DNA from: Pirellula staleyi DSM 6068
GTDB taxonomy: Bacteria; Planctomycetota; Planctomycetia; Pirellulales; Pirellulaceae
Reading direction: 5' to 3'
Assembly (NCBI GenBank): GCA_000025185.1
Contig: CP001848.1
Span: forward strand, 660,001 to 692,000
DNA: 32,000 nucleotides
Of the stretch, positions 1 to 25,881 are shown piece by piece. Made by a program: the position numbers and the translations under genes. Below the pieces are notes generated by a model. It was given only the letters and a program-made list of their open reading frames with translations. It did not search any database and was not told the DNA's origin. Position 1 is the first letter of the stretch, and every line of letters begins with the position of its first letter.

Positions 1-480
1 CTCTATGGCAAGGTCTCCGACGCCATCCGCGAAGGTGAAACGATCGCCAAGCCACTCGCTGCCAACAGCCGACCTGGTTTTCATCCGGTCGCCCTCTTCC
101 TCTGGGTACTGCTCGGTGCGAGCGTGCCGCTCGGCATCATGTGCATGCCAGGGATGATTAAGAGCGTCGGGCTGCAGCCACTGCTCTATGGTGCTCTGCT
201 CGGCGTGATGGCGGGTGGCATTTACTACTTCCTTCGCATGAATCACCGCATCGTCGACGAACTGGTGGTGAACATGGTGGACGTGGGTGAAGAGACGGGC
301 GAACTCGACACCATGCTCTACAAAGTGGCCGACGTGTTCGACGAAGAAGTTTCGACACTCACCGACGGTTTGATGAAGCTGATCGAGCCACTCCTCATCG
401 TGTTCCTCGGTGGTGCGGTGGGCTTCATCGTGATCTCGCTCTTCATGCCTCTGATTAGCTTGATCCAAGGTCTGACCTAA
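1..480 (+). CDS. gspF: Type II secretion / type IV pilus platform protein (GspF/PilC family), C-terminal part; 5' end lies outside the window
   Basis: Frame 1 is open from nt 1 (LYGKVSDAIREGETIAKPLAANS...) into the listed 124..480 ORF. The C-terminus VVNMVDVGEETGELDTMLYKVADVFDEEVSTLTDGLMKLIEPLLIVFLGGAVGFIVISLFMPLISL matches the conserved GspF/PilC second-repeat motif (vGEetG.Ld..L..vA.fy..ev......l..llEP.li...g..vG.iv.amylPi) plus the last TM helix. Pseudopilin genes follow directly. Confidence 0.85.
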   Translation, partial: LYGKVSDAIREGETIAKPLAANSRPGFHPVALFLWVLLGASVPLGIMCMPGMIKSVGLQPLLYGALLGVMAGGIYYFLRMNHRIVDELVVNMVDVGEETGELDTMLYKVADVFDEEVSTLTDGLMKLIEPLLIVFLGGAVGFIVISLFMPLISLIQGLT

Positions 481-745: not shown

Positions 746-1660
746 ATGCAACTCACCTCCACCACTGCGACGAGCCCCGCGCGACTCGAATGTGTGGCCC
801 GTTTCTCCGCGCAATCGCGACGGCGTGGTTTCACGCTTGTGGAACTGCTCGTGGTGCTCGGCATCATCGCCGTGCTGGTGGCCCTGCTTGTTCCCGCAGC
901 GATGGCCGCGCTCAACACAGCGCGTCGCGCGTCGATCGCGTTTAAGGTTTCGCAGCTGGCCGACGGCATCGAAAAATACCGTGCCGCGCACGACGACTAT
1001 CCCCCCAGCAGTCGCGACGTCGGTGCCATTCAGCGTCACTTGCGTAAATGCTATCCCAAGATTACCCCGGTTTACTTCAATGCTACGGTCGCCAAACTCA
1101 CCGATGCCTCCATCAATGGCATCGACGAAGGTGAAGCTCTCGTGTTCTGGCTGAGCCAAGTGAACAAGTCGGCGACCAATCCGTTTCCTAGCTTGATGAC
1201 TCCTGGCATTGCGATTCCCTCGCCAGAAGCTCACTACGTCTTCAAGGAAACCGACTTGCAGGACGACGATGGGGACGGCTTTCCGTCGTTCGTTTGCCGC
1301 GAAGCGAAGGACACCTACTTCCTCTATCTCGATGCTCGATCGTACGACGAGTTCATGGACTACTCGAACGCCAGTTCCCCTGCCTTTGCCGAGAGTCGCG
1401 CGGTGGGTGAGGCTCGGCCTTATTTCTCCGACACGATTGCCAACAGCGCGGCGACCGATGCTCGCCAGCGCTACAAGCTGATGAACCCCACAAGCTTTCA
1501 GATCATTTGCGCGGGGCAGGATGGTGAGTTCAACCTGGGTTTCAACGACGACGACAGCGACGTGAAGCTCTTCCCCAGCGGTCTGAACTACAGCAATTCT
1601 GATCGCGACAACATTACAAACTTCAGCGATGGCCGACGCCTGATGGACAACATTCCGTAG
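746..1660 (+). CDS. Prepilin-type N-terminal cleavage/methylation domain protein, GspG-like pseudopilin with large insertions (304 aa)
   Basis: AAGGAGA at 731-737 lies 8 nt before ATG 746. The leader ends ...SRRRG|FTLVELLVVLGIIAVLVALLVPA (class III signal, Glu at +5). After the helix, ARRASIAFKVSQLADGIEKYRAAHDDYPPS resembles GspG. The C-terminus ICAGQDGEFN...DNITNF resembles the GspG ending (s.G.DG....DDi.nw). The listed ORF start at 644 is probably too far upstream. Confidence 0.8.
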   Translation: MQLTSTTATSPARLECVARFSAQSRRRGFTLVELLVVLGIIAVLVALLVPAAMAALNTARRASIAFKVSQLADGIEKYRAAHDDYPPSSRDVGAIQRHLRKCYPKITPVYFNATVAKLTDASINGIDEGEALVFWLSQVNKSATNPFPSLMTPGIAIPSPEAHYVFKETDLQDDDGDGFPSFVCREAKDTYFLYLDARSYDEFMDYSNASSPAFAESRAVGEARPYFSDTIANSAATDARQRYKLMNPTSFQIICAGQDGEFNLGFNDDDSDVKLFPSGLNYSNSDRDNITNFSDGRRLMDNIP

Positions 1661-1746: not shown

Positions 1747-2805
1747 ATGACTGGCCAACCAATCCAGCAGCACACGATGGTGCGGCGATCGCGGCGTGGT
1801 TTCACGCTCACCGAATTGCTGGTCGTGATTGCGATCATTGCGATTTTGGCCGGGCTGTCGTTCGCCGGGTTGCAAGGTGCGACGGAACAAGCGCGCGAAG
1901 CACGCACCCGTGCGGTGCTGGCGAAACTCGATCAGCTGATCATGGAGAAGTACGACACCTTCACCACCCGCTCGATTCGCGTGAATCCAGCCTTTCAGCA
2001 GAGCGGAATGTCTACAACGCCACAGACTTTCATTGCTCAGGTGCGGCTCTACACGCTCCGCGAGCAGATGCGACTCGAACTTCCCGACCGCATCAGCGAC
2101 CTCTGCACCAACGCCGAACGGACTGGTGATTTTGCCGATCTGACACTCAACGCTGTCGACATCTTCAATGTCGAGCGAGCTTCGATTTCGGGCATCGCCT
2201 TGAACCCCGGGATGCCTTCGATCACACGAACCTACAAGCGTAAGGCTGGGATTGCCATCGCCAATGGGAGTGGCTGGACGTCGGAGTTTGGTGGGGCCGA
2301 ATGCCTCTACCTGATCGTCTCGACGATGCGTGATGGCGACAAAAGTGCGCTCGAGTTCTTTCGCTCGGAAGAAATTGGGGACGTCGATGGAGATGGAATG
2401 CCTGAGTTCCTGGATGGTTGGGGGCGTCCGATCCTGTTCATCCGCTGGGCACCAGGCTACGTCAACAACCCCGACAATGGCCGCTTCGCACCAACGCTGC
2501 AAGTCAACAACGGTGTACTATCACCCGATCCGTTCGATCCTCTGCGGGTCGATCCGCGCTGGGGCCTTAACACCAATCCGTTCTACAAGCCCTATGCACT
2601 GCGGCCACTCATCATGTCCGGTGGGCCTGACAAAGAGTATTCGATCTTTGTGAATACCCGCGCGGCGATGGATCTCCCCACGGCGAGTGATCTTCCGAAC
2701 GATCCCTACGTCGGTTTGGGTACAGCTAGTGGAATGTCGGGCGATCCTGATCCGACCAACGGCTATGGCGACGACCTGACCAATCACTACCAGGGAGGGC
2801 TCTAA
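1747..2805 (+). CDS. Prepilin-type N-terminal cleavage/methylation domain protein, second GspG-like pseudopilin (352 aa)
   Basis: RRSRRG|FTLTELLVVIAIIAILAGLSFAGLQGATEQAREARTRAVLAKLDQLI. Later GDVDGDGMPEFLDGWGRPI (compare the GspG D.WG.p motif) and ...SGGPDKEY...GDDLTNHY at the C-terminus. Start could be ATG 1747 or ATG 1777. Confidence 0.8.
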   Translation: MTGQPIQQHTMVRRSRRGFTLTELLVVIAIIAILAGLSFAGLQGATEQAREARTRAVLAKLDQLIMEKYDTFTTRSIRVNPAFQQSGMSTTPQTFIAQVRLYTLREQMRLELPDRISDLCTNAERTGDFADLTLNAVDIFNVERASISGIALNPGMPSITRTYKRKAGIAIANGSGWTSEFGGAECLYLIVSTMRDGDKSALEFFRSEEIGDVDGDGMPEFLDGWGRPILFIRWAPGYVNNPDNGRFAPTLQVNNGVLSPDPFDPLRVDPRWGLNTNPFYKPYALRPLIMSGGPDKEYSIFVNTRAAMDLPTASDLPNDPYVGLGTASGMSGDPDPTNGYGDDLTNHYQGGL

Positions 2806-2808
2806 GTC

Positions 2809-3855
2809 ATGACCTCTTGGTTCTTCCGTATCGTGACATCTTTGCCAATCGCATCGCAGCAGCGCCGATCGAAGCGATCGGCTGGCTATACGCTCATCGA
2901 GCTGCTGGTGGTGATCATCATCCTGCTGCTGCTACTCGCGCTGCTGTTGCCGATTGCCTCGTTCGCGGTTAAAGACACCCGCACTCGTTCGGCCGCTTCC
3001 CGTTTGCAGAATGCGTTTCACATCGCTCGGCAAATGGCGATTCGCGATCGGCGTCCCTGTGGCGTCTACTTGCAAGTCGATCAGCAACTCGGTGGCGCGG
3101 GAGTGTTTCAAGTCACCAAGGGCTACTTTGCTCAAGAGGCACCTCCCTACAGCGGATCGACTCTCGGCGTGCGAGCGTACAACGGTCCCGGTGCCGACAT
3201 GACAATATCTACAAACGATGACGTGCTCATGTTCTCTGACTCTTCCGAGAACAATTATTTGTCGGCTTTAATCAACCATCAGCCAGAGACGATTCTGGTC
3301 CGCTTTGATTACAAGGGAGAGTGGTTCGTCTATAGCTTCGATGTTATGAGCAGTCAGTTCATAGGGGGTTATCCCGAACGGGCGACCAGCAATGCTCGTC
3401 CACCGACCGTGGCTGGAACTACGGGCTATCCGTTTCAGATTCGACGATTGCCCAAACGAACGGCTGCGGCCTTTGAGCTTCCCGATGGAACGGCCATCGA
3501 CCTGGCATACAGTGGGTTTGGTCGCACCGGAACCGAGTTCAGCAGCGGCAGCTATCTCTTTCCGGCGGACGACACCACCTCGAGCGCGATTGTCGTGATG
3601 TTTAACTCCGACGGCGCAATCGAAAGCATCTATCGCGGTGCAGAGCCGGGGCGACCTCGCAGCGAGAGCATCAACTTCCTGCTCGGCGACATCGAGCGGT
3701 TGGGGGTGGCGGGTACCGAGTCGAATTTGGCACGCTCCGAAAATCTGTGGTTTCAGCTGCGCGGTCCCTTGGGGATCCCGGTGATTTACGAAAACAACCC
3801 CGACGCTGCCCTCACGCTGCAAGCATGCCGCAGCCTGTCGGACACGGCACAGTAG
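2809..3855 (+). CDS. Prepilin-type minor pseudopilin, GspH/FimT-like N-terminal region (348 aa)
   Basis: ATG lies 3 nt after the upstream stop (TAA 2803-2805). KRSAG|YTLIELLVVIIILLLLLALLLP is followed by TRTRSAASRLQNAFHIARQMAIRDRRPCGVYL, the pattern seen after the helix in GspH/FimT-type pseudopilins. Confidence 0.7.
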   Translation: MTSWFFRIVTSLPIASQQRRSKRSAGYTLIELLVVIIILLLLLALLLPIASFAVKDTRTRSAASRLQNAFHIARQMAIRDRRPCGVYLQVDQQLGGAGVFQVTKGYFAQEAPPYSGSTLGVRAYNGPGADMTISTNDDVLMFSDSSENNYLSALINHQPETILVRFDYKGEWFVYSFDVMSSQFIGGYPERATSNARPPTVAGTTGYPFQIRRLPKRTAAAFELPDGTAIDLAYSGFGRTGTEFSSGSYLFPADDTTSSAIVVMFNSDGAIESIYRGAEPGRPRSESINFLLGDIERLGVAGTESNLARSENLWFQLRGPLGIPVIYENNPDAALTLQACRSLSDTAQ

Positions 3856-3896: not shown

Positions 3897-5033
3897 ATGA
3901 ACTCACAACGCACCTACCGACGAGCCCTCTCGCACCAGCGGTCGGCTGTCACGATTTTGGAAGTCTTGTTTTCCATTCTCGTGGCCACCATCGGCTTGCT
4001 CGGAGCGGTGGCAGTGATTCCTGTCGCTGCCAGCCAAGCCCGCAAAGGTCAAATTGCCGACGCCTCGGCGGTGACTGGTCTTTCGGCGATTCACGAGTTC
4101 GATGCCCGTGGCATGCGCAACACCCAGCGGTGGTTTTGGTGGGACGGCAATGCCTACCAAGGGGCCAGCACGTTCTTTGGGGGTAGCTCGTCGTACTGCA
4201 TCGATCCACGCTTCGTCGCCGACAATGCCATCAGCGGAACGTCGACCACGTTTCCTTACGGAGCGTCGGGCATTCCAGCGATGCCGCGGCTGAACCTCAC
4301 CAGTTCCGCAGCCCCTCCTTACACCAGCGCGATGTCGTCGATTCAGGCGAATGTCGAGTTCGCGTGCGACGACGATCTGGTGGTGCTCGAGCCAACCGAT
4401 CGTTCGCTCCCCGCCGCGCAGCAATATCCGCGTGACGATACGCAAGCGATCCTGAGTGGTCGTCGCCAAACTGGTGGCCTGATGTCGTGGTTTGCCACCA
4501 TCACCCCAAAGCTCGATCGCTACCACTCAGCCGCAACCGCTACCAACGAATATCTTCTCTCGATTGTTGTGCTGAAGAGTCGTCCGATCAATCTTCGGAC
4601 GTCGGACTATGGCGATCAGGAATGGACTGTCAACGTCACGGCGTTCAACAGCATTGGACAAGTTGGCGGTCATGCGGCTGGCGCGAGCGTGGCGCTACGG
4701 GGTGGCGATATTCAAATCTCGGCTCCCACGGCTGAGATGCTCGACATCAAGCGCGATCAGTGGATCATGCTCGCCGGCACTGCCACAGTGATCGATCCAG
4801 CGACAGGTACAGCGGGTTCATTTACGGCGAACCGTTTTCAGTGGTATCGCGTGACCGATCTCGACGACGAGCCGGTGAACAATGGTGCCAACTGGGTGCG
4901 TGATATCACGATTGCTGGACAAGACTGGAACACCGATCTCAACGGCGACAGCAGCCCCGATCCCTGCATTGCGGTGATCGTTCGGGATGTGACGGCGGTG
5001 TACGAGAAGACGATCCGACTGGAAACAAACTAG
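3897..5033 (+). CDS. Prepilin-type minor pseudopilin, PilV/GspI-like N-terminus (378 aa)
   Basis: Internal ATG 3897 gives MNSQRTYRRALSHQRSA|VTILEVLFSILVATIGLLGAVAVIPVA (Glu at +5; the IGLLG motif is as in PilV/GspI). The listed start at 3747 would overlap the previous gene by 109 nt and adds a non-pilin-like peptide. Confidence 0.65.
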   Translation: MNSQRTYRRALSHQRSAVTILEVLFSILVATIGLLGAVAVIPVAASQARKGQIADASAVTGLSAIHEFDARGMRNTQRWFWWDGNAYQGASTFFGGSSSYCIDPRFVADNAISGTSTTFPYGASGIPAMPRLNLTSSAAPPYTSAMSSIQANVEFACDDDLVVLEPTDRSLPAAQQYPRDDTQAILSGRRQTGGLMSWFATITPKLDRYHSAATATNEYLLSIVVLKSRPINLRTSDYGDQEWTVNVTAFNSIGQVGGHAAGASVALRGGDIQISAPTAEMLDIKRDQWIMLAGTATVIDPATGTAGSFTANRFQWYRVTDLDDEPVNNGANWVRDITIAGQDWNTDLNGDSSPDPCIAVIVRDVTAVYEKTIRLETN

Positions 5034-5099
5034 TCGGTCGTCGGCGATGGATGGTCGATTGGCTTTTCCCCTGGCTGTTCTGGCCAGATTGTAGTTGGT

Positions 5100-5121
5100 G
5101 GCAAGGCCCGGAACCCTTGCC
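5100..5121 (+). promoter_or_regulatory. Hairpin 20 nt upstream of the giant gene's start codon (7-bp stem, 8-nt loop)
   Basis: GGCAAGG (5100-5106) and CCTTGCC (5115-5121) are exact reverse complements. It is followed by CTGTTATGGAGAGAGAACG-ATG, so the GGAGAG Shine-Dalgarno-like element sits just 3' of the stem. Confidence 0.25.
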
Positions 5122-5140
5122 CTGTTATGGAGAGAGAACG

Positions 5141-8100
5141 ATGGCAACTCAGCACCACGCGACGACCGGCATCTGCACCCAGCAGAGCTCCCCGACGAAT
5201 CGCCCGCCATCGCGCGGACGCCTCTCGCGCCAGCGACGTGGTGTCGTGCTGCTGCTGGTGATCAGCCTCCTGACGCTCTTCATCTTGATCGGCGTGACCT
5301 ACGCGATTGTGGCGTCGACCTACCTCTCGGCTGCGAAGAGCACCGCCCTGATCGACCAAGTGGGAGACCAGCCACAGCTGGAGCTCGACGAAGTCTTCAC
5401 CAACATTCTGAGCGACACTTCGAACAACAGCACACTCAAGGGAACCTCGCCGCTGCTCGACATGTACGGCACCGACGGGATCTGCGGCGAACTCACTTCG
5501 GTCGGCACGTTCGACAACGGTAATCAAACGATTCGGTTCAGTGCTTCGTCCCCCACGACGTTCACCGCGCCACCACCCTACACCGGAGCGACGTTCTCCA
5601 ATGTCCCTGACTACTACAACGGCCGGGTGATCACGTTCTGGCGCTACAACGGCTCGGAAGCGCGTCCGATCAGCACGCGCGTCATGCAGTACGCTCCGCC
5701 CGATATGTCGGGGAGCATCACCATGGTGGTGGCGGCCGACTTCACCAACTCGGGCTCGATGCTCGCGGCTCCGCAAATTGGCGATCGGTTTGTCATTAAC
5801 GGGGCCCCGTACAACGGCACGGGAGCCGGCTATCAAGACTCCACTTCCCCCGCGCTCGGTTTGGAAGTCGATGTTGCGGGGACCAATCGCCCGATCGCAC
5901 TTCTACCTCACTTTGCCGGACATCCTGATCCCGATAGCGCCATTCAATCGGCCAATGCAGGTGGTTTCGACGAAAGCTACGATGCGGTCGATTTCCAAAA
6001 CTTCTTCCTCGCGCTCGATCCACCAGGACTTGCGCAAGAAATTGCGAACTCCTCACGCACCTCGCCTCAGATTCCGTCGTACCATCGTCCCGACCTCGTG
6101 AATTACTGGACGAACGCCGTCAGCATCACTTCCGACACCGACATCCTGACGCACAGCGACTTGCTGCGGCGCGTGATTGCCCGCCCGATGCCGTGGGACC
6201 ATCCGAACTTCACCGGTAGCAATCCGGCATTTCCCATCGGTCAAACGAACTGGATGAGTGCACTCTCCAACGCCTCCAACTTGCAAGGCATTTGGGACGT
6301 CGACAACGATGGGGATGGAGTCCCCGACAGCATTTGGATCGATCCCGGTTTGCCGATCATCACCACCCCCGATGGGCGCAAAGTGAAGCGGCTCGCAGCG
6401 ATCAAGATCATCGACCTCGACAGCCGCCTCGATATCAACGCCACCGGCAACCTGGCGCAAACCTTTTCCTCCAATCATCGGGCTGCTCAAGGAATCACGC
6501 TGTTTGCTTTGGCCGGTCAAACCCCCTCTGCCCCGTCGCTGGTTTATCTGCCGCGCGGACTTGGCTATGGTCCTGCGGAAATCGACTGGCAAAGTGTGAT
6601 TTTTGGTAGCGACGACGCTTCGTACACCGCTGTGCTGCAAGCCCGCTATCAAGGGGCGGGAGAGACTCAGCCCGGTACGCTCGGCGACGAACTCCTCTCG
6701 GCCCGGCATGCGATTGGCATGGTGCCGAACAACTTGACGAATCCTTCGAGCTACGCCAGTCCTCCCGATGTCTACGGTCGTGGTGCTGTCGGTACCGACC
6801 ATTTTGGACAACCGGTCTACGGCTTCACGGGGGATAACGAAACGGTAGACGACCCGTACGAAGTGCAGTACGACCATACTCGCGCAACAGCCGACCGTCC
6901 GTTCGACGTGAGCGACCTCGAATGGCTCCTCCGTCATCACGATTCGGGTGTGGGACAAAAGCCGACCCGACTCTCGTCGTCGGCTGCTTCGACGTACCTC
7001 ACCGCAGGGGCTCCTGGCTCGATCGACGCGACACACGCGAAACGTCAACTCCTGACGACGATGAGCTCGCACGTTCCTGTCCCACCAGGACCACACTTGC
7101 GCGAAGAGCGGGCCACAGGCTGGAGCACCAATGCCCATCGTCGCACGCTGCTCGATCTGTATTACAAACGCCTCCTGGGAGCAGGAGATTTTACGAAAGC
7201 ATGGGCGCAGCTCGTTCCGTTTGAAGCACGCCACGGTCATCCGTTCAACATCAACCGTCCTTTCGGCAACGGTATCGACGACAACAGCAATTCCGTTATC
7301 GACGATCCAAGCGAAGCATTAATCGCTAATGAATTGCTTTTTGGGACAGTGAATTTTGAGAAGTTCAATGACAGTTCGTACGCAGGAGACTCTGCCGATC
7401 AACGTCAAATCTACGCTCGCCACCTCTACACGCTGCTGATGCTGATCCGCGACAGCGGGGGTGCCACCTGGCAGATTCCCGAGGATGTGAACGGCGACGG
7501 ACCGACTGATGCTCGCGATACCGCGCATTATCTGGCTCAGTATGCGGTGAACGTCGTCGATTTCCGCGACAACGATTCGATCAACACTGGTTTCGAGTAC
7601 GACGTGAATCCGTTCGATGGTTGGGATGTCGATGGTGATCTCTCGACCGACGAAGGTGCCAATCGGGGTGTCGTGTGGGGTGCCGAGCGTCCCGAACTGC
7701 TGATTACCGAAACGCTGGCAACGCACGACCTGCGGACCGAAGACTTGATGGACGAAGAACCCAACGGCGGCGAAACTGCGGCGCTCGTGGATGCGACCAC
7801 CGATCCCGATCCTGATTTCGATCAGCGCTTTCGCCCTTCGGGCTCGTTTTTCCTCGAGCTCTTCAATCCGCACTTCGACTACACCAACGCCACGAATGCG
7901 ACCCAGCAAGGGGTCCATAAGCCGCTCGAAATTTACGACGGCAATGGCGGAGTAGCGCTCAACCGCATTAGCGCCGGTGGAGCCGGTTCCCCCGTGTGGC
8001 GCGTGATCATCGTGCAAGGTGCGGCCCGCAATGAAAATCCCGATGTCCCCGCCCCCGAGCACCTGACCGGTGCGGCTACCGGCGCGGGAGAAATCGAGCG

Positions 8101-10084
8101 GAGCATCTACTTCACCGATCCTGCGGCAGGTGTGGTGCCAACCAATCATGGTGTCGCCTTCTTCCCCAGCTCGTCGAATCAGCAACCTTCGCTGAAGCCG
8201 GGACGTTATGCGATCGTCGGATCGTCGGGTGTGGCCGATGCTGGTAACTACACCACGTACTTTGGACGAAACGCGACCGATCCTGCCGACGTGGCGAACA
8301 CGCGCCGCTTGGTCCTGACACCCAACGCCAACGCCGACACCAATCAGCTGGCGGTGAACAACTTCGAATCGGCACCGAACCCAGCCACGGTGAACTATGG
8401 CACCGATGTCGCCCCGGTGATTGCGATTCCGATCGATAGCCCACGTTCGATCAGCATCTCGGAACCTGCGCAGTCGGGCTATCCAGTAATGGCTGGTACG
8501 AGCTCAGCTTACACTTCAGATCCCGTTGCTAATCCGATCACGCAAGGGACGTACGTTCCACCGATCGATACGCCGCTCGATAACAACCGCACCGACGGTG
8601 CCCCGAATGCCTGGGACACGCTCAAGGACTGGGGAACGAAAGAGCATTTCCGCGCAGTCCATCTGCAGCGGCTTGCCAATCCACTCCTCCCTTGGAACTC
8701 GCTCACCAATCCTTACCTGACGGTGGATACGGCGAGCGTCGATCTCACCGTGTTCAACGGCATCGAGAACAAGGATCACAACTCGTTCAACAAGGATGAG
8801 CTGAACTTCCAAACGGCACAGCGTGGTGGCGCGTTCCCCGAAGCACCGGGGCTCGATTCGCCGAACGCCGCGATCTATCGCAACCTGTGGCTCCAAGAGC
8901 CAGCGCACGGCAACGTGACCGCCGATTCGCCCAACGAAGGTGGCGCACAGACCCACATCTTCAACAAGCAGCTGTTCCACACGCTCGGCTATCTCAATCG
9001 CCGCTATCACCCGTACTTCGATGCTTCGGCCAGTGCCGGGGTCTATCTCGGTGCTCCTTCGCCGAGTGGCATGGGTGGCAATTCAACCTTCCCTTGGCTG
9101 ACGTTCCTCAACCGTCCGTTCGCCAGCCCGTATGAAATGATGCTTGTGCCATCGCAGTCGCAAAGTCGGCTCCTGACACGAGTGACCCTCGCGCCAGCGA
9201 TGTTCGATCCGTTTGACCGGACGAACTACGCTGTCCCCTACTCGCATCTCTTCAACTTCTATCAAAGCACCACCGATGCCCGGACTGTCGATGGCCCGAT
9301 GTTCTCGCGGCTGCTCGACTACGTCTCGATCCCTTCGCCTTATGCCCACTCCGACCATGCGTTCAACATGCAGTCGTTCACTTCGGCGACTTACCCGGGG
9401 GCGAACAACGCCGCTACGTATCGTCCGCCGTTTGCGTTTGTCTCCCGTTTCCGTGAACCGGGACGGATCAACATCAACACCGTGAGCGACTCGCGCATTT
9501 TGGAGGCGCTCTTCAAGGGAATGCCGCAGTACGATCCGTCGATCAACGGCGCGTTTGTCGACAAACTGCTCCGGAGCCGCCAAGGCTACACCGGTACGAT
9601 TGGGCAAGCCGACGTGAACTTCCCAACGATCTTCGCGCAGCCTTTCCGGGCGCAAGACGCGGGAGATTTGGCGCCGCTTCAGAACATGGAAGAGCGGGCG
9701 ATCAACGCCGGCCTGATGCGCCGCGATCCCGACGTCGGCACCACGCCGCTGTTCACCAAACCGAGCACCGGCGACCATGCCGATTCGACACGCAATCCCT
9801 ACTTCCGCTATCAAGGGATGCAGAAGGTTGGCAATCTAGTGACGACGCGCAGCAACTGCTTTGCCTGCTGGATTACGATCGGCTACTTCGAAGCGGAACC
9901 TGCGCCGATCGATGCGGCCCATCGCGACGGCTATTCCCTTGGCCAAGAGATTGGTTACGACTCGGGGGAAGTGCAGCGACATCGGGGCTTCTACATCTTC
10001 GATCGCTCGATCCCGGTCGGATTTATTCCGGGCAAGAAGCTCAATACCGACGATGCCGTGCTGCTGCGGCGCTTTATCGAGTAG
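5141..10084 (+). CDS. Giant GspK-like minor pseudopilin (1647 aa)
   Basis: GGAGAG lies 6-11 nt upstream of ATG 5141. The N-terminus RQRRGVVLLLVISLLTLFILIGVTYAIV is GspK-type (hydrophobic helix without Glu5). IKIIDLDSRLDINATGNL (6401-6454), GRININTVSDSRILEALF (9461-9514) and TTRSNCFACWITIGYFEAEP (9842-9901) resemble GspK hallmark segments as I recall them. It is the last gene of the pseudopilin operon, as gspK is in canonical T2SS operons. Confidence 0.75.
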   Translation: MATQHHATTGICTQQSSPTNRPPSRGRLSRQRRGVVLLLVISLLTLFILIGVTYAIVASTYLSAAKSTALIDQVGDQPQLELDEVFTNILSDTSNNSTLKGTSPLLDMYGTDGICGELTSVGTFDNGNQTIRFSASSPTTFTAPPPYTGATFSNVPDYYNGRVITFWRYNGSEARPISTRVMQYAPPDMSGSITMVVAADFTNSGSMLAAPQIGDRFVINGAPYNGTGAGYQDSTSPALGLEVDVAGTNRPIALLPHFAGHPDPDSAIQSANAGGFDESYDAVDFQNFFLALDPPGLAQEIANSSRTSPQIPSYHRPDLVNYWTNAVSITSDTDILTHSDLLRRVIARPMPWDHPNFTGSNPAFPIGQTNWMSALSNASNLQGIWDVDNDGDGVPDSIWIDPGLPIITTPDGRKVKRLAAIKIIDLDSRLDINATGNLAQTFSSNHRAAQGITLFALAGQTPSAPSLVYLPRGLGYGPAEIDWQSVIFGSDDASYTAVLQARYQGAGETQPGTLGDELLSARHAIGMVPNNLTNPSSYASPPDVYGRGAVGTDHFGQPVYGFTGDNETVDDPYEVQYDHTRATADRPFDVSDLEWLLRHHDSGVGQKPTRLSSSAASTYLTAGAPGSIDATHAKRQLLTTMSSHVPVPPGPHLREERATGWSTNAHRRTLLDLYYKRLLGAGDFTKAWAQLVPFEARHGHPFNINRPFGNGIDDNSNSVIDDPSEALIANELLFGTVNFEKFNDSSYAGDSADQRQIYARHLYTLLMLIRDSGGATWQIPEDVNGDGPTDARDTAHYLAQYAVNVVDFRDNDSINTGFEYDVNPFDGWDVDGDLSTDEGANRGVVWGAERPELLITETLATHDLRTEDLMDEEPNGGETAALVDATTDPDPDFDQRFRPSGSFFLELFNPHFDYTNATNATQQGVHKPLEIYDGNGGVALNRISAGGAGSPVWRVIIVQGAARNENPDVPAPEHLTGAATGAGEIERSIYFTDPAAGVVPTNHGVAFFPSSSNQQPSLKPGRYAIVGSSGVADAGNYTTYFGRNATDPADVANTRRLVLTPNANADTNQLAVNNFESAPNPATVNYGTDVAPVIAIPIDSPRSISISEPAQSGYPVMAGTSSAYTSDPVANPITQGTYVPPIDTPLDNNRTDGAPNAWDTLKDWGTKEHFRAVHLQRLANPLLPWNSLTNPYLTVDTASVDLTVFNGIENKDHNSFNKDELNFQTAQRGGAFPEAPGLDSPNAAIYRNLWLQEPAHGNVTADSPNEGGAQTHIFNKQLFHTLGYLNRRYHPYFDASASAGVYLGAPSPSGMGGNSTFPWLTFLNRPFASPYEMMLVPSQSQSRLLTRVTLAPAMFDPFDRTNYAVPYSHLFNFYQSTTDARTVDGPMFSRLLDYVSIPSPYAHSDHAFNMQSFTSATYPGANNAATYRPPFAFVSRFREPGRININTVSDSRILEALFKGMPQYDPSINGAFVDKLLRSRQGYTGTIGQADVNFPTIFAQPFRAQDAGDLAPLQNMEERAINAGLMRRDPDVGTTPLFTKPSTGDHADSTRNPYFRYQGMQKVGNLVTTRSNCFACWITIGYFEAEPAPIDAAHRDGYSLGQEIGYDSGEVQRHRGFYIFDRSIPVGFIPGKKLNTDDAVLLRRFIE

Positions 10085-10129
10085 CACAGCTGAGTAGCCG
10101 CAACTGAGCAGCGCAGTCCGTGACGCGAG

Positions 10130-10177: not shown

Positions 10178-10645
10178 TTATTTTTTGCCGAGCCGGCGCT
10201 GCTGCTGAAAGAAGCGGGTGAGAATCTCGCCCGATGGTTTGGCGAGAATGCCGGGAACGACCTGACAGCGGTGATTCAGCCGCTCGTCGGTCAGCAGATG
10301 AAACAGCGAGCCGACCGCTCCTGCTTTGGGATCGGTGGCCCCGTAGACCACGGTTGGCACACGGGCTTGCAAGATCGCACCCGAGCACATGATGCAAGGT
10401 TCGAGGGTGACGTAGAGGGTGCAGCCTTCGAGCCGCCAATCCCCCATCGATTCGGCCGCTTGCGTAATCGCAATCATCTCGGCATGGGCGGTGGGATCGT
10501 GCAGCGCCTCGCGCTGATTGTGAGCAGCAGCGATGACACGCCCTGAATGCACAATCACAGCTCCCACCGGAACTTCATCTTCATCGAACGCAGCCGACGC
10601 TTCGTTCAAAGCGAGCTGCATATAGTAGTCGTGCGTCAGGAGCAT
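10178..10645 (-). CDS. tadA: tRNA-specific adenosine deaminase TadA (CDA-fold zinc deaminase)
   Basis: Contains EVPVGAVIV, the HAEM motif ([15 protein letters not shown]) and the PC..C motif ([34 protein letters not shown]). The size is typical (about 155 aa). The listed start at 10648 is a TTG immediately followed by ATG (10643-10645 on the + strand = CAT). I take the ATG. Confidence 0.9.
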
Positions 10646-10734
10646 CAAAGCCGTCTTGGATGGCGTGAGAGAAAGCGGAGCGCGAGGTTCACGCTAGTTT
10701 TTAGCAACTCGTGCGAACGATTTTTTATCGACCA

Positions 10735-11457
10735 CTACTTATCGTTATCGGTTACCGAGGGCTCTTTGACCTCTTCTGCCTTGGCATCGGCAGGGAGCTT
10801 AGTGAGCTTGAAATTGCGGTAAGCAGTCTTCGTTTGGTACGAGGAGAGGCCGAGCGGCTTCGAGAGATCGACTTCACTGCGGGTCGAGATCTTTTTGTCT
10901 TTCAGATCGACGCTCGCCAGGTTTTCGTCGTCGATGAAGGCTTGCAGCTTACCACCGGCAACACGGACCCGGATCTTGTACCACTGATTAGATTTGAACG
11001 TGCGAAACTGTGTGGTTTCGTTCTCGGAGGCGTCGTAGTTGTTGATGCTCGAGATGCCGACAATGCCACCGGCCCAGCCTCCGACGATGAAGCTCGCATG
11101 CGAGTCGCGTACGGGAAAGGTGAGTCCGACGAAGAAGTCGATGCCATCGACGCGCATCGCTTCGACGGTGATTTCGTACTGATCTTTGGGAAGCGGATCT
11201 TTGCCGGTCCAGGTGACACCGGTGAGCGGGTCGCCCATCGCAAATTGGAGCAAACCTTTCTCGATCGTGACTTCCCCTTCGCCACCAAAATTGGTTTTCT
11301 TCCAGTTGGTGAGGGTCTTGCCGTCGAACAGGTCGATGGTGGTCGACTTCTCAGCAGCGGGTGCTTGGGGCTCTTCGGCAGTCGACCAGCGCGCGACGAA
11401 AAGTGGCAGAGCCAGGAGGAGCGCGACGAGTGGCCGAGAAAGTCGCAAGTGAGTCAT
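10735..11457 (-). CDS. Secreted DUF1080 (3-keto-disaccharide hydrolase-like, concanavalin-fold) domain protein
   Basis: Internal ATG (11455-11457 = CAT) gives a signal peptide, MTHLRLSRPLVALLLALPLFVARWSTAEE. LFDGKTLTNWKK...GEVTIEKGLL...YEITVEAMRVDG...WYKIRVRVAGGKLQAFIDD is the typical DUF1080 pattern. The longer listed ORF (to 11592) would overlap the upstream epimerase gene. Confidence 0.75.
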   Translation of the reverse strand: MTHLRLSRPLVALLLALPLFVARWSTAEEPQAPAAEKSTTIDLFDGKTLTNWKKTNFGGEGEVTIEKGLLQFAMGDPLTGVTWTGKDPLPKDQYEITVEAMRVDGIDFFVGLTFPVRDSHASFIVGGWAGGIVGISSINNYDASENETTQFRTFKSNQWYKIRVRVAGGKLQAFIDDENLASVDLKDKKISTRSEVDLSKPLGLSSYQTKTAYRNFKLTKLPADAKAEEVKEPSVTDNDK

Positions 11458-11552
11458 CGGAGCGGGCTCCTGGAGCGGCGGTGTGGGTGGGATCGATGCG
11501 AAACTGGAGCAAGTAATTATGACAGATTCGCTGCGCGGAGCATAGCGCGCGG

Positions 11553-12539
11553 CTACCAAGGACGACCAGCCGACTCTTCTTGCAGGGCCCAAGCGACGTA
11601 GCGCGGGACTTCGATCTCGATCTGACGGGTCGGCTGATAGCCGAGCACACGGGCCGATTTTTCGAGGCTGGCGTGTGTTCGGAGCATATCTTCCGTGCGC
11701 GAGGGGAGCTGCTCGATGAGGGCGCGGCGGCCAGCAGCGGCCTCGATCATGTCGATCAGCTGACGGACGGTGATCGGCGCACAGCTTCCCAGATTGAACG
11801 CTTCTCCGGCGACAGCGGTGGCGAAGTGAGGGTGCTCGAGCGTTTGCAGCAAACCTTGGGCGATATCGGTGACGTGGGTGAAATCGCGGAGCGCCGAGCC
11901 ATCGCCAAACAGCTTCAGCGGCTCGCCCCGCAGGATCGCGCGTGTGAAAGCCGCGAGCGCTAGTTCGGGGCGAATGCGAATGCCATAGGCGTTAAAAAAT
12001 CGGAGCGAAACGAACGGAATCTGATACAGATGATGGTAGTTAAAACCGAGCTGCTCGGCGGCCCGCTTACTCACACCGTAAGGGCTGACCGGATTGCCCA
12101 TCGGCGCATCTTCGGCAAATGGTGCTGCAGCTCCACTGCCATATACCGTGGAGGACGACGCAAACAGGAACTGCTCGACGCGATGTTGCCGCGCAAGTTC
12201 CAGCAGCACCAGGGTCGCCTCGATGTTGTTCCGCAGGCATTGACGAGGATCGCGCAAACTTGCCGGGACACCTGGCGAAGCGGCCAAGTGGACGATGCTG
12301 CGTACCGCATGCTCTTCGAGCAGTTTTTTGAGCGCGACAGCGTCGAGGCAGTCGGCATTGGCGATCGTGATACGAGGGGAAAGAGCGGCGAGGTGCGCGG
12401 CGATATTGCGTTTGACGATAGGGCTGTAGTACGGATCGAAATTGTCGACCACAACGAGCCGGTGCGAAGTTTTTGCCAGCAGTAGCTCGACCAGGTGGCT
12501 TCCGATGAAGCCTGCCCCACCAGTGATCAAAACAGCCAT
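11553..12539 (-). CDS. NAD-dependent epimerase/dehydratase (extended SDR; UDP-sugar 4-epimerase-like)
   Basis: MAVLITGGAGFIGSHLVELLL (Rossmann GxxGxxG), catalytic YGVSKRAAE (YxxxK), 328 aa. Substrate is not assignable by eye. Confidence 0.85.
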   Translation of the reverse strand: MAVLITGGAGFIGSHLVELLLAKTSHRLVVVDNFDPYYSPIVKRNIAAHLAALSPRITIANADCLDAVALKKLLEEHAVRSIVHLAASPGVPASLRDPRQCLRNNIEATLVLLELARQHRVEQFLFASSSTVYGSGAAAPFAEDAPMGNPVSPYGVSKRAAEQLGFNYHHLYQIPFVSLRFFNAYGIRIRPELALAAFTRAILRGEPLKLFGDGSALRDFTHVTDIAQGLLQTLEHPHFATAVAGEAFNLGSCAPITVRQLIDMIEAAAGRRALIEQLPSRTEDMLRTHASLEKSARVLGYQPTRQIEIEVPRYVAWALQEESAGRPW

Positions 12540-12726
12540 GAAACCATGATCTTGTACGAAGAGTAAAAGCGGGGCCGCATGCGACAGCCGATCGACATAG
12601 GACGTTATAGTGGGAAACTTAGCTGTTGTGCGAGAGTGCTAGTGCATGCCGCACCGCGATGTAACGTGTGTGTTGCTCGATTTTTTGAGTCAAATCGTGG
12701 CTCTGCATCGAGAGGCAGGGAAGTTT

Positions 12727-13134
12727 ATGAATCCTAGCGGGCGAACATCGATTGCCACGATCGCTGCGCTAGCGGTGCTGATCTATTGGGGGATTTTGTT
12801 CCTGGGGACGCATTTGCCGGGTGGTTCGCAGCTCCCCTTCACGTGGTTTGACAAAGTGCAGCATGCCAGTGCGTTTGCGATGCTCGCGCTGCTGCTACTC
12901 ACGGCGATCAGCTTGCGGGTTCGCGCTGGCTGGATTGCCACGCTAACGGTGATTGGCATTTGTGCCGTTTATGGCCTGGTCGACGAACTTTCGCAGCAAC
13001 TGGTGCCGCGGCGCACGTGCGATTTCTATGACTGGGTGGCCGACGTCACGGGGAGCTTGATCGGCTGCGGCATTTTCTTTGCCGTGCGAGCCGCTTGGGC
13101 GATGCTGCGAGCGACGCAGAGCCCAACGACCTAG
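12727..13134 (+). CDS. VanZ-like family membrane protein
   Basis: Four hydrophobic segments. DKVQHASAFAMLALLL and LVDELSQQLVPRRTCDFYDWVADVTGSLIG match the VanZ-like pattern (dK..H...y......., DE..Q.f.pgR....~D...n..G..iG). Start is ambiguous: ATG 12646 or ATG 12727. Confidence 0.7.
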   Translation: MNPSGRTSIATIAALAVLIYWGILFLGTHLPGGSQLPFTWFDKVQHASAFAMLALLLLTAISLRVRAGWIATLTVIGICAVYGLVDELSQQLVPRRTCDFYDWVADVTGSLIGCGIFFAVRAAWAMLRATQSPTT

Positions 13135-15407: not shown

Positions 15408-15632
15408 GTGAAAAAGTCCCGATCTCTATCGTGCGGTCGCGGGGCGCAGCACGATCCGCCCGAAATGGGGATCGCGCGGGCCGACCTATCACTGCAAGTT
15501 GTGTGAACTATGATTGTATACTCGTAGCCTCCCGAGCGAGGAATCGTGCGGGCTGTAACGAATTTAACGAACCACCATGTGGGCGAGGCGGAAACTGTCT
15601 TGCTCAATCTCCCCTCCCTTTGCTGCTGGTGA

Positions 15633-16658
15633 ATGATGCCTGGAACTTCTGCCGAACGACTCCGCGGTATTTTTACGCCCAACATCGTCCCCCTCGATGC
15701 CGATGGCGAGATCCACGAAGGCGAACTGCGCCGCTATGTCGATTGGCTCATCGACTCGGGTGTACATGGGCTTTATCCCAACGGCAGCACCGGCGAGTTC
15801 ACGCGCTTCACAGCGGAAGAACGTCGACGCATCATCGAGATCATGGCCGATCAGACAGCTGGTCGTGTGCCGATTCTCGCCGGAGCTGCGGAAGCCAACA
15901 CGCGCGAAACAATCAAGGCGTGCGAGTACTATTACGAGCTCGGCTGTCGCGCCGTCGCGATTGTTTCGCCCTTCTACTACAAGCTGACCCCCGCTGGCGT
16001 GTACGCCTATTTCAAAGAGATCGCCGACAACTCGCCGATCGACATCACGCTCTATAACATCCCGATGTTCGCCTCGCCGATCGATGTGCCAACGGTGCAA
16101 CGCTTGGCAGAAGAATGCGAGCGCGCGGTGGCCATTAAGGATAGCTCGGGAGATCTGCCGCACATGATGCGCATGATCGCTGCCGTGCGACCACTCCGCA
16201 CCGATTTCAGCTTCCTCACCGGCTGGGATGCGGCGCTGATGCCGATGATTCTGGTCGGCTGCGATGGTGGAACAAACGCCACCAGCGGTGTGGTGCCCGA
16301 GATCACGCGCAAGCTCTACGACCTGACGGTGAGTGGCCAAATCGACGCCGCACGCGATCTGCAATATCGCTTGCTGCCGCTGTTCGATGCGATGCTCTAC
16401 TCGGCTGAATTCCCCGACGGTTTCCGCGCGGCGATGAAGCTTCGAGGCTTCGAGCCCGGTCCAAGTCGTCAGCCGAAGTCCGACGTTCAGCAGTTGCAAC
16501 TGGCGAAGCTCAGCGATCAGCTGCAATGCTTGCTCGCCGCCGAGGGCTTCACCTCGCAACCATCGGGTGGCTGCAAGCCCAAGCCAGCGGTGAACGAAGA
16601 CGAAGTTGCCCGCATCGTGCAAACGGTGATGGGTGAACTGCGTAAGCACGGCGTGTAA
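15633..16658 (+). CDS. Dihydrodipicolinate synthase / N-acetylneuraminate lyase family class I aldolase
   Basis: [55 protein letters not shown] and the Schiff-base Lys context [10 protein letters not shown] are DHDPS/NAL-family hallmarks. The GSTGE variant is closer to the NanA-like form than to DapA GTTGE, so I do not call it dapA. Confidence 0.85.
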
Positions 16659-16689
16659 CGCACTGACAGCTTCGCGCGGGATGCTGCTC

Positions 16690-25750: not shown

Positions 25751-25881
25751 TTAAAAACACTCGGTCGCAACCGACGAGGGGCCTCCCCGCGACTCGCCTC
25801 TCGTCCCTCTCGTCGGCTACCGCTGCGAGCACTACACTACGGGAAGTCTCGGACCCCTCCGGCCCTTCGCTGCACTTCCCT

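Follow-up and report, generated by a model that had tools for sequence, protein, structure and literature searches.

We analysed a window of 32,000 nucleotides from Pirellula staleyi DSM 6068, which opens on the forward strand with the end of a platform gene, followed by four pilin genes and a giant open reading frame (ORF). These are given below with their best-matched models, and a slash after the Gly (or Ala) of an N-terminal motif marks the prepilin-type cleavage position.

1..480, + strand: 3′ end of a PilC/GspF-like platform gene, which runs off the window start (Pfam T2SSF, E 1e-13).
746..1660, + strand: pilin 1, 304 aa, with a GspG-like N-terminus (RRRG/FTLVE; N_methyl, E 5e-8).
1747..2805, + strand: pilin 2, 352 aa (RRG/FTLTE; N_methyl, E 8.6e-9).
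2809..3855, + strand: pilin 3, 348 aa, weakly GspH/FimU-like (SAG/YTLIE; N_methyl, E 2.2e-6; GspH, E 0.0019).
3897..5033, + strand: pilin 4, 378 aa, with a PilV/GspI-like N-terminus (RSA/VTILEVLFSILV; PilV model, E 0.0011).
5141..10084 including stop, + strand: giant ORF, 1647 aa, with a predicted mature form of 175 kDa and pI 4.8.

All four upstream pilins have Glu5. Pilin 1 was matched by the GspG model (41.5 bits) over its N-terminal 69 aa only and carries the acidic loop DDDGDGFPS (nt 1262–1288), while pilin 2 carries the acidic loop DVDGDGMPE followed by DGWGRPI (nt 2380–2406). Pilin 3 scored 36.7 bits with GspH and 40.8 bits with Verru_Chthon cassette protein D, both under cut-off. Pilin 4 has Ala at position −1, where its orthologues have Gly (RRG/VSILEV and similar), and an N_methyl match was found in the pilin 4 orthologue at locus L021. 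The giant ORF starts at the ATG at 5141, with ggagagagaac upstream; a longer reading from 5051 would add 30 aa that have no counterpart in homologues.

An original prediction for this DNA had described the giant as a GspK-like tip pseudopilin, in which the hallmark segments of GspK keep their order and are pushed far apart by inserted sequence. The protein strings that it quoted were all found, at the positions it gave or a few codons away (RQRRGVVLLLVISLLTLFILIGV, aa 30–52; DLDSRLDINATGNL, aa 425–438, nt 6413–6454; GRININTVSDSRILEALF, aa 1441–1458, nt 9461–9514; SNCFACWITIGYF, aa 1571–1583, nt 9851–9889), and the wide spacing was also borne out, with ~330–380 aa from the helix to the first motif and ~1,000 aa from one N-x-N to the other. 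The E. coli GspK motif that it gave is inexact, as K-12 GspK reads SINLNMLTENDIPLFRALF. Taken as a whole, we find the interpretation partly supported.

A homologue search with the giant returned 638 matches, of which the 120 listed are 1,384–2,020 aa long with ~98% coverage, and the best 120–150 listed homologues are all giants. An exhaustive search gave 914 clusters at E≤1e-30 and 2,809 clusters at E≤1e-3; the family occurs widely in Pirellulales, its sequence clusters numbering from hundreds to thousands, and ETAA8_63990 of Anatilimnocola aggregata ETAA8 is one of its genes. Across hundreds of sequences the giant ORF shows 32–98% identity along its full length, and the retention of 1647 codons at this level is far beyond chance. 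The original prediction had noted that such an ORF might be several genes fused in error; it is, however, unsplit in more than 120 listed homologues and at 29 genome loci, where it is one gene each time (family range 1,331–2,266 aa). As every orthologue is a single ORF and the shortest complete one has 1,331 aa, an assembly fusion or frameshift artefact is ruled out. Where database entries are short, the matching part is confined to their own C-terminal end, which shows them to be contig-edge fragments.

The order T2SSE(MshEN)–T2SSF–four N_methyl pilins–giant is conserved, and in three genomes read further upstream it extends to PilB–PilT–PilB–PilC–four pilins–giant, with genes downstream of the giant not conserved across the loci examined. 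In the window, as at all loci examined, four prepilin genes precede the giant, consistent with its predicted place as last in the prepilin run, and the terminal gene is always a giant (1,331–2,266 aa). PilT was matched at 446.9 bits against a cut-off of 319, and the extension ATPase scored higher with PilB (642 bits) than with GspE (603 bits). The PilB-like extension ATPases also carry c-di-GMP-binding MshEN domains, and an MshE-type c-di-GMP motif is typical of surface pili. For the platform, a full-length orthologue (locus L013) scored 370 bits with GspF and 346 bits with PilC, both under the equivalog cut-offs. Genes for GspC, GspD, GspL and GspM were found neither in the cluster, nor in the 32 kb window, nor at the loci examined; no secretin or PilMNOP genes were seen within the 32 kb window, and no separate PilY1 gene was detected in the window or at the loci examined.

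The three genomes followed further upstream all encode a true PilT, and the machine thus resembles a retractile type IVa pilus rather than a classical T2SS. The giant could instead cap a T2SS-type pseudopilus, as first proposed, where the filament would be a periplasmic piston and the giant head would bind folded exoproteins in the enlarged planctomycetal periplasm and push them through a secretin. The platform score that leans slightly to GspF, the best match of pilin 1 to GspG, a set of five pilin-like genes comparable to G-H-I-J-K and motif similarity to T2SS GspK, including alpha-domain motifs that P. aeruginosa PilX is without (PMC7248040), are all compatible with this. However, the PilT retraction ATPase within the same cluster in three genomes, the PilB-leaning ATPase with its MshE-type motif and the absence of GspC, D, L and M genes from cluster and window argue against it, and we consider a T2SS cap unlikely. 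A classical T2SS was set aside as the primary reading owing to PilT and the PilB-leaning ATPases, and these genomes are better explained by a type IVa-like pilus whose tip pilin is of the PilX/GspK class.

Within the giant we distinguish the following segments, where AlphaFold refers to part-models described below.

5141..5242, + strand: basic leader peptide, aa 1–34, ending R-R-G, with a putative prepilin-peptidase site at G34/V35.
5243..5413, + strand: pilin-type helix, aa 35–91, hydrophobic then amphipathic (AlphaFold helices 37–73 and 78–91).
5450..6268, + strand: insertion A, aa 104–376, predicted by AlphaFold as a small beta-barrel (~aa 110–250) and then a helical region.
6293..6454, + strand: acidic loop WDVDNDGDGxPDSIW and first GspK-like motif IIDLDSRLDINATGN, aa 385–438, the proposed equivalent of GspK strands beta1–beta2.
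6455..9085, + strand: insertion B, aa 439–1315, the main body, with no detectable relatives.
9089..9166, + strand: FPWLTFLNRPFASPYEMMLVPSQSQ, aa 1317–1342, the proposed equivalent of GspK motif PPRHSANQMLFLTGELRQIKG.
9461..9598, + strand: GRININT and two helices, aa 1441–1486, the proposed counterpart of GspK's second helical repeat (Pfam T2SSK region).
9797..10081, + strand: C-terminal alpha+beta unit, aa 1553–1647, of one helix and five antiparallel strands, the proposed C-terminal half of the pilin sheet.

Examination of 117 aligned members showed Gly at the predicted cleavage site in all of them and Arg before it in 104, while position +5 is V, I, M or L and never Glu. The giants thus have the GspK/PilX-type class III N-terminus without Glu5 that had been predicted, with (R/K)-R-G/V-V-L-L-(V/I/M/L) against R-G/V-A-L-L-(I/V/L/T) in GspK. 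Leaders in the family are mostly 10–25 aa, and that of the query is long for a prepilin at 33 aa. Using hhalign, the giant N-terminus aligned with GspK aa 3–69 at P 1.8e-5 (probability 78%), and its matches to the pilins of its own operon (P 0.002–0.011) were weaker than this match to proteobacterial GspK. The N-terminal methylation models (Pfam N_methyl, NCBIfam TIGR02532) gave no match in the giant, probably because it is without Glu5.

A significant GspK-family match had been expected at both termini, and none appeared in Pfam, NCBIfam or PDB sequence searches. Pfam and NCBIfam returned nothing for the giant query at E≤10, and T2SSK_1st (PF21687), T2SSK (PF03934) and NCBIfam GspK had no significant match in the query or in 29 members, T2SSK touching one of the 29 at E 1.1; as a positive control, E. 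coli GspK matched the T2SSK_1st and T2SSK models at 3e-31 and 7e-13. PilX_N (PF14341) likewise had no match in the query or the 29 members, and PDB sequence searches with the protein and with the family profile gave no match.

Profile–profile comparison with GspK gave a mixed outcome for the proposed relationship, as the segments are collinear at the predicted places but hhalign probabilities range from 1 to 78%, with no significant family match. Six segments of the giant find their best GspK matches in strictly ascending order (K3–69, K76–111, K119–137, K173–197, K214–256 and K283–293), which by order alone has ~1 chance in 720. Their P values are 1.8e-5 to 0.036, for matches that are each short (7–65 columns) and made of simple motifs (hydrophobic helix, N-x-N), with some segment boundaries picked after the motifs had been seen. 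After the N-terminus come aa 385–438 against GspK aa 76–111 (P 7e-4; GspK HMM domain there in 83 of 121 members), aa 585–603 (DRPFDVSDLEWLLR) against 119–137 (weak, P 0.03, recurring in ~12 members), aa 1317–1342 against aa 173–197 (P 0.003; R1325, P1326 and E1332 invariant), aa 1441–1486 against aa 214–256 (P 1.1e-4 to 2.4e-4, probability 44–57%, score 37.8) and the C-terminal WITIGYFEAE against FPYSRYFTLST of GspK (P 0.036); the last two C-terminal strands gave no match to GspK. The two highest scores, 37.8 and 29.7, stand against a mean of 15.9 ± 2.6 and a maximum of 23.6 in 60 column-shuffled controls, and GspK match scores are 5–8 SD over the shuffled controls and also well above reversed controls. 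A GspK HMM found a match in each of the 121 members, at 5.9 bits on average and 16.1 bits at most (reversed decoys, maximum 1.9), with 240 of the 266 domain matches at equivalent places.

These matches also bear on whether the giant is a pilin at all. It might be bitopic in the inner membrane, where a signal-anchor helix would bear a large periplasmic body, and serve the pilus machine otherwise, for example in alignment, as a stator or in gating, with GspK motifs that arose by chance or convergence; pilin models and structures yield no significant match, the GspK matches are short and draw on low-complexity features, and the query leader is unusually long. We nevertheless regard this as quite unlikely, given the prepilin-peptidase-type site (Arg, invariant Gly, V-V-L-L) in 117 of 117 sequences, the order and control scores of the six GspK matches, an N-terminus that is GspK-specific over other pilins, and the fixed place after four pilins.

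The best-conserved parts across 121 members are the N-terminal helix, the WDVDNDGDG..DSIW..DLDGRxNxN block, PGRININT and the last 100 aa. Of three acidic loops that had been singled out beforehand, that at aa 386–396 is invariant (D386, D388, D390 and D392), that at aa 829–839 is partly conserved and that at aa 782–790 is not; an additional conserved acidic loop, GNGxDDNxNGVVDxPxE, lies at aa 709–725. Further invariant residues in aa 385–438 are W399, D401, D425 and D427. When this block was compared with the DGDG..W.P region in pilin 2, homology reached P 0.02 only, which we took for a motif in common and gave no weight as evidence.

AlphaFold gave two part-models, an N-part and a C-part, neither of which holds both halves of the proposed pilin core (pLDDT 67–71, pTM 0.66–0.80). 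They show a 55-residue N-terminal helix, as in pilins, helices at aa 1451–1458 and 1470–1481, and a C-terminal five-stranded sheet (aa 1573–1580, 1583–1587, 1598–1603, 1614–1621 and 1640–1646). Insertion B comprises two long helices (aa 752–809) and a beta-rich region (aa 817–1205), includes a FNINRPFGNG-acidic loop (aa 702–725) as well as DRPFDVSDLEWLLR, and has no Pfam, NCBIfam, PDB or BFVD match. Foldseek against the PDB with both part-models found no GspK, PilX, ComZ or other pilin and no PilY1, and the C-part model had no match in BFVD. No domain of known function was recognised in the inserts. The best PDB matches of the N-part model, and the only near-significant ones, were FNR-type six-stranded barrels (E 3.5e-3, ~110 columns), which we infer to correspond to the modelled barrel at aa 110–250, since the Foldseek output is without query ranges. 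The sole neighbours of the C-terminal unit were cystatin-like helix-on-sheet folds (E ~1, not significant).

The size and acidic calcium-type loops of the giant recall PilY1-class tip proteins, and it could accordingly be read as a secreted or surface adhesin of PilY1/MshQ type, with an uncleaved or Sec-type signal, that docks on the minor-pilin complex. The cluster is without a separate PilY1 gene, and the beta-rich aa 817–1205 gave very weak propeller-like Foldseek alignments (probability 0.00). However, the PilY1/PilC domain (PF05567) and adhesin families in Pfam and NCBIfam had no match in 29 members or in the four longest members, and the pilin-like N-terminus (R-G/V-x-L-L, 55-residue helix) is unlike the type I signal peptide of M. 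xanthus PilY1 (PMC7541494), which makes such a partner protein very unlikely.

The place of the giant in the operon, its conservation across the family, its N-terminal signature and a weak, collinear likeness to GspK are shown by these data, and it is probably a remote and hugely enlarged GspK/PilX-class minor pilin that caps a type IV filament. Its precursor would have a basic leader followed by the hydrophobic helix of pilin type, be cleaved by prepilin peptidase after Gly34 and stay anchored in the inner membrane by the helix, and by analogy would form a priming complex with the upstream Glu5-containing pilins on the PilC platform. As the giant is without Glu5, the residue that pairs each pilin to the subunit above, it could only be the topmost subunit, as are GspK and PilX, which also lack it (PMC7541494). 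Its pilin core would be split into the helix (aa 35–91), strands at ~aa 395–437 and the C-terminal unit (aa 1553–1647), with a novel acidic body of ~1,300 aa, including the invariant DxDxDG calcium-type loop, inserted in core loops and placed at the very tip of the fibre. From these features we infer processing, tip location, calcium binding and a ligand for the giant; a counterpoint is that a compact 175 kDa head (pTM 0.80) would need passage through a secretin.

Compared with GspK, whose structure is that of the ETEC GspK–GspI–GspJ complex (Korotkov & Hol 2008, as cited in PMC7248040), the giant is likewise last of the pilin run, with an R-G/V-x-L-L N-terminus without Glu5, the collinear motifs W..(D)..I.D..GR.N.N, N-R-P-F/L-x-S-x-x-E-L-x-x-V, x-I-N-x-N-T with two helices and Arg, and Y-F-x-V/L strands, a proposed extra domain inside the pilin sheet and a putative capping role. 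It differs in its fivefold size (1647 aa, where GspK has 327 aa), with insertions of ~280 aa behind the helix and of ~880 aa in the alpha-domain region, in reaching no Pfam or NCBIfam GspK threshold and no Foldseek match to solved pilin complexes, and in a machine that has PilT and in which GspC/D/L/M genes were not seen. In M. xanthus and P. aeruginosa, PilX tops a four-minor-pilin complex and the large, calcium-dependent PilY1 sits above it as adhesin and cork (PMC7541494). The giant cluster similarly has PilB, PilT and PilC, with one gene in place of pilX–pilY1 after the other pilins, although the giant has no PilX_N or PilY1/PilC signal, its head belongs covalently to the pilin, where PilY1 is a protein of its own with a type I signal peptide, and the fold of the head is unrecognised.

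The inserts are a candidate for what the fibre binds, since they amount to ~1,300 residues without recognisable relatives in a probable tip subunit, and an adhesin or ligand-binding head is a plausible role. By analogy with type IVa pili, and because MshEN PilB-like ATPases and a true PilT occur with no PilY1 detected in the window or at the loci examined, the giant would most likely act as a built-in tip adhesin and retraction stopper, one chain for PilX plus PilY1. Planctomycetal fibres from crateriform structures bind high-molecular-weight polysaccharide (PMC5394234), and the molecular players behind these fibres are described as 'still unknown' (PMC12673574); the giant is a concrete candidate for such undefined components, in surface attachment or polymer capture. 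It is improbable, but conceivable, that these fibres capture their ligand with the giant head, and that PilT retraction of a pilus tipped with this 175 kDa calcium-dependent binder would 'fish' macromolecules toward or into the enlarged periplasm; a type IV pilus would then serve nutrient acquisition by means of a new protein fold.

Tip subunits determine what type IV filaments bind, and, as pilin-class subunits, the giants would far exceed in size any that we found described. Known modular pilins include ComZ of Thermus thermophilus, PilB and PilC of Streptococcus sanguinis, CofB and TcpB (PMC8179133, PMC7248040). As in these, a pilin module would carry a bulky functional module that forces a tip position, and in ComZ and GspK the module lies inside the beta-sheet, as proposed here; known modules, however, are of ~150–400 aa with known folds (beta-solenoid, vWA, lectin, beta-sandwich), whereas the giant adds ~1,300 aa over at least two insertion points, with no recognised fold. 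It has a pilin-type N-terminus and this large additional body, with the IPR012902/N_methyl signature undetected. An InterPro-based survey of modular pilins required the IPR012902 motif (PMC8179133) and, given the lack of an N-terminal methylation match, would probably have missed the giant; as Pfam, NCBIfam and Foldseek (PDB, BFVD) all miss the family, such surveys probably missed it too. Should the predicted fold prove right, insertions of this extent are tolerated by the pilin scaffold, and PilX-like and PilY1-like roles can merge in one chain.

Our literature searches found no description of a giant GspK, a planctomycete GspK or the Verru_Chthon cassette. The Verru_Chthon cassette (TIGR02596, TIGR02598, TIGR02599) is a pilin-like gene cassette of the same PVC superphylum and also includes a very large protein A. 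The giant query matches no cassette model at E≤10, while pilins 1 and 3 gave weak matches to cassette proteins C and D, and a single member of the giant family gave one to protein B, all under cut-off and mainly over the N-terminal helix.

The giant gene lies in an uninterrupted ORF (5051-10084, + strand) in which an ATG at 5141, with ggagagagaac just 5' of it, gives a protein of 1647 aa. Many ORFs of 80-395 aa overlap the gene across 5030-10087 on the - strand and in the other + frames (e.g. 6053-7240, - strand, 395 aa); they are to be expected at ~59% G+C and lack support as real genes. Using protein sequence searches we detected 638 matches to the giant among 5.8 billion proteins, and the best 120 were 1,384-2,020 aa long with 32-98% identity and query coverage mostly ~98%, all being unnamed or 'hypothetical' and none carrying a precomputed Pfam domain. 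The sources named among the matches listed were Pirellulaceae, Pirellulales, Thermoguttaceae and Anatilimnocola. Likewise, an exhaustive HMMER search of 1.84 billion representatives using the last 332 aa returned 2,809 clusters at E≤1e-3, 1,706 at 1e-10 and 914 at 1e-30. Full-length matches here spanned 1,331-2,000 aa, while short matches aligned at their own C-terminus only, the pattern expected of contig-edge fragments. A scan of one genome per species identified 29 loci in Pirellulales-type MAGs, and the giant was a single long ORF, of up to 2,266 aa, in all 29. This, with the coverage among the matches listed, demonstrates one real conserved gene and not an assembly fusion.

A significant GspK-family match had been anticipated in the original prediction, but none was obtained with Pfam, NCBIfam, PDB sequence searches or Foldseek. 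The giant gave no match to Pfam or NCBIfam even at E≤10; one of 29 diverse family members reached Pfam T2SSK, at E 1.1, with nothing relevant in NCBIfam, and the four longest members (1,981-2,266 aa) contained no Pfam domain. PDB sequence searches with the giant protein and a 29-sequence profile gave no match. We examined two AlphaFold2 models, aa 448-1647 (pLDDT 70.6, pTM 0.80) and aa 1-1200 (pLDDT 67.5, pTM 0.66), each spanning one half only of the proposed pilin core, and Foldseek detected no pilin, GspK, PilY1 or ComZ match in the PDB with either, or in BFVD with the aa 448-1647 model. Top PDB matches were FNR-type six-stranded barrels (E 3.5e-3, ~110 columns), which we tentatively assign to aa 110-250, and the best matches of the C-terminal unit were non-significant cystatin-like helix-on-sheet folds. 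The secondary structure predicted in the models includes an N-terminal helix of 55 residues (aa 37-73 and 78-91), a pair of helices following RININT and, at the C-terminal end, one helix with five antiparallel strands, all compatible with a pilin core without proving one.

We also used hhalign to compare a 44-sequence alignment of E. coli GspK homologues with a 121-sequence alignment of the giant family. With the full-length giant, the three regions singled out in the original prediction were exactly the three best local alignments, in the correct order.

Segment matches between the giant and GspK (hhalign)
Giant aa 30-93, GspK 3-69, P 1.8e-5, probability 78%
Giant aa 396-437, GspK 76-111, P 7e-4
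Giant aa 585-603, GspK 119-137, P 0.03
Giant aa 1317-1342, GspK 173-197, P 0.003
Giant aa 1441-1486, GspK 214-256, P 1.1e-4 to 2.4e-4
Giant aa 1577-1586, GspK 283-293, P 0.036

With the GspK position left free, these six best matches were strictly collinear, with ~1 chance in 720 by order alone. After removal of the hydrophobic helix the real top scores were 37.8, 29.7 and 25.2, compared with a mean of 15.9 (SD 2.6, maximum 23.6) for 60 column-shuffled GspK alignments and 18.9 for a reversed alignment. An unfiltered GspK HMM matched 121/121 giant members (mean 5.9 bits, maximum 16.1; reversed decoys ≤1.9 bits), with 240/266 domain placements at equivalent positions. The N-terminal logo of the family, (R/K)-R-G|V-V-L-L-(V/I/M/L)-V, has Gly in 117/117 sequences and Glu at +5 in none, and that of GspK is Q-R-G|V-A-L-L-(I/V/L/T). 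As a specificity control, this N-terminal profile was compared with the pilins encoded beside it, and its match to GspK (P 1.8e-5) was far better than to any of those four groups (P 0.002-0.011). These targeted comparisons, in which the similarity is weak but collinear, suggest that the giant is remotely GspK-like. That it could be a non-pilin bitopic membrane protein with GspK-like motifs arising by chance is improbable given the invariant R-G|V-x-L-L site, the collinear matches and the controls.

All motif strings quoted in the original prediction were found where placed or a few codons away, and the two large gaps are as given there, ~330-380 aa from the helix to the first motif and ~1,000 aa from one N-x-N motif to the other. 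The E. coli motif cited for comparison is inexact (K-12 GspK has SINLNMLTENDIPLFRALF). Conservation extends across the entire protein, with maxima at the N-terminal helix, aa 385-440, 800-870, 1175-1205, 1317-1340, 1427-1450 and the last 100 aa. Among the three acidic loops proposed, that at aa 386-396 is invariant, that at aa 829-839 partly conserved and that at aa 782-790 not conserved, while a conserved loop at aa 709-725 (GNGxDDNxNGVVDxPxE) had been overlooked. The invariant DxDxDG loop (nt 6302-6328), which may bind calcium judging from its sequence, lies immediately N-terminal to the first proposed core strands, and a D-x-D-G-D-G-x-P loop is common to the giant, pilin 1 (nt 1262-1288) and pilin 2 (nt 2380-2406). 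In pilin 2 it is followed by DGWGRPI, which we take to resemble a DPWG-type motif of GspG.

Genes upstream of the giant, in order, all + strand
First in window: 3' end of a T2SSF-family gene
746-1660: pilin 1, N-terminus G|FTLVE
1747-2805: pilin 2, N-terminus G|FTLTE
2809-3855: pilin 3, N-terminus G|YTLIE
3897-5033: pilin 4, N-terminus A|VTILE (orthologues G|VSILE), directly before the giant

All four pilins possess Glu5 and, at 304-378 aa, are two to three times canonical pseudopilin size. In pilin 4 the residue predicted to lie at -1 is Ala (RSA|VTILEV, nt ~3940-3960), in contrast to Gly in orthologues elsewhere (RRG|VSILEV and similar), and the protein may be processed less efficiently or at a shifted site. 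Sub-threshold NCBIfam matches to Verru_Chthon cassette proteins were also observed for pilin 3 (D, 40.8 bits, cut-off 70), pilin 1 (C and D) and one member of the giant family alignment A4 (B, E 0.054); these are confined mainly to the N-terminal helix and give a hint that enlarged pilin cassettes form a family spanning the PVC group.

The order T2SSE(MshEN)-T2SSF-four pilins-giant was found again in related loci. More of the upstream sequence could be read in three genomes (the 98%-identical MAG DLHC01000002, Anatilimnocola aggregata CP036274 and ERZ25039539), and in these the cluster reads PilB-like, 378-380-aa ATPase, PilB-like, PilC/GspF-like, four pilins and giant, with different genes 3' of the giant in each. 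Model scoring identifies the 378-aa ATPase as a true PilT/PilU (446.9 bits, cut-off 319). The long ATPases scored higher for PilB (632-642 bits) than for GspE (603-605 bits), both slightly below equivalog cut-offs; every one contains a Pfam MshEN domain, and that of homologous locus L013, the only one tested, passed the MshE-type c-di-GMP motif model. Among the loci read upstream of the region that the window covers, L031 (1-3800) and L032 (1-4068) have two PilB/GspE-like ATPases with c-di-GMP-binding MshEN domains at the cluster start, one on each side of the true PilT, and in L033 (196-3159), where reading begins at PilT, one is seen. Two extension motors per pilin set are unusual and suggest c-di-GMP control. 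The window contains no secretin or GspC/L/M, the remaining genes being sugar-modifying and other unrelated genes. Because of this absence, the true PilT and the PilB-leaning MshEN ATPases, the description that fits the machine best is a type IVa-like pilus system capable of retraction, rather than a classical T2SS. The PilT and PilB-like ATPases likewise disfavour the T2SS frame of the original prediction, making a periplasmic T2SS-type cap an unlikely role for the giant.

GspK and PilX, the pilins without Glu5, are assigned the uppermost position in the minor-pilin priming complex, and in type IVa pili PilX bears PilY1, the complex remaining at the tip, where it serves as adhesin and cork (PMC7541494; PMC7248040). 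GspK and ComZ show that the pilin sheet can accommodate an inserted domain, which forces a tip position (PMC8179133). We consider it reasonably probable that the giant is a GspK/PilX-class tip pilin with a split core, remnants of the GspK alpha-domain and a new body of ~1,300 aa. Its core would comprise aa 35-91, ~aa 395-437 and ~aa 1553-1647, with putative alpha-domain remnants at aa 585-603, 1317-1342 and 1441-1486. The new body would be formed by two insertions, A at aa 104-376 (barrel and helices) and B at aa 439-1315 (including beta-rich aa 817-1205), and the pTM of 0.80 suggests that aa 448-1647 fold into a single integrated unit rather than a string of separate domains. Cleavage would fall at G34|V35, and the protein would sit at the tip and may bind a ligand. 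Because the cluster has PilT and PilB-like ATPases responsive to c-di-GMP but no detected PilY1 gene, we favour a role for the giant as an adhesin built into the tip that also stops retraction. A role as partner or cargo of the PilY1 or MshQ type is very unlikely, as the giant has a pilin-type N-terminus and gave no adhesin-family match in Pfam or NCBIfam.

A search of the accessible literature found no description of a giant GspK/PilX or of this family, and neither Pfam nor NCBIfam holds a matching model. The modular tip pilin principle is already known; the new elements are the sheer size, a core that is split, a fold that is not recognised and a possible union of PilX-like with PilY1-like roles. 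Dextran is bound by planctomycetal fibres that emerge from crateriform structures, and the components of these fibres have yet to be identified (PMC5394234; PMC12673574); the giant family is a concrete but speculative candidate for them.

Immediately 3' of the giant, 10178-22277 is an envelope/glycan-type gene block, mostly on the - strand. A connection with the pilus operon is improbable, because the block is kept in the 98%-identical genome and absent from more distant genomes.

Genes 3' of the giant
11553-12539, - strand: NAD-dependent epimerase/dehydratase
12646-13134, + strand: VanZ-like
13131-15407, - strand: Alg9/GT22-like mannosyltransferase-family protein, 758 aa
16690-18555, - strand: GNAT-domain protein
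20372-21118, - strand: GT2 glycosyltransferase
25627-27405, + strand: PDZ-containing S41 (CtpB-like) carboxy-terminal processing protease
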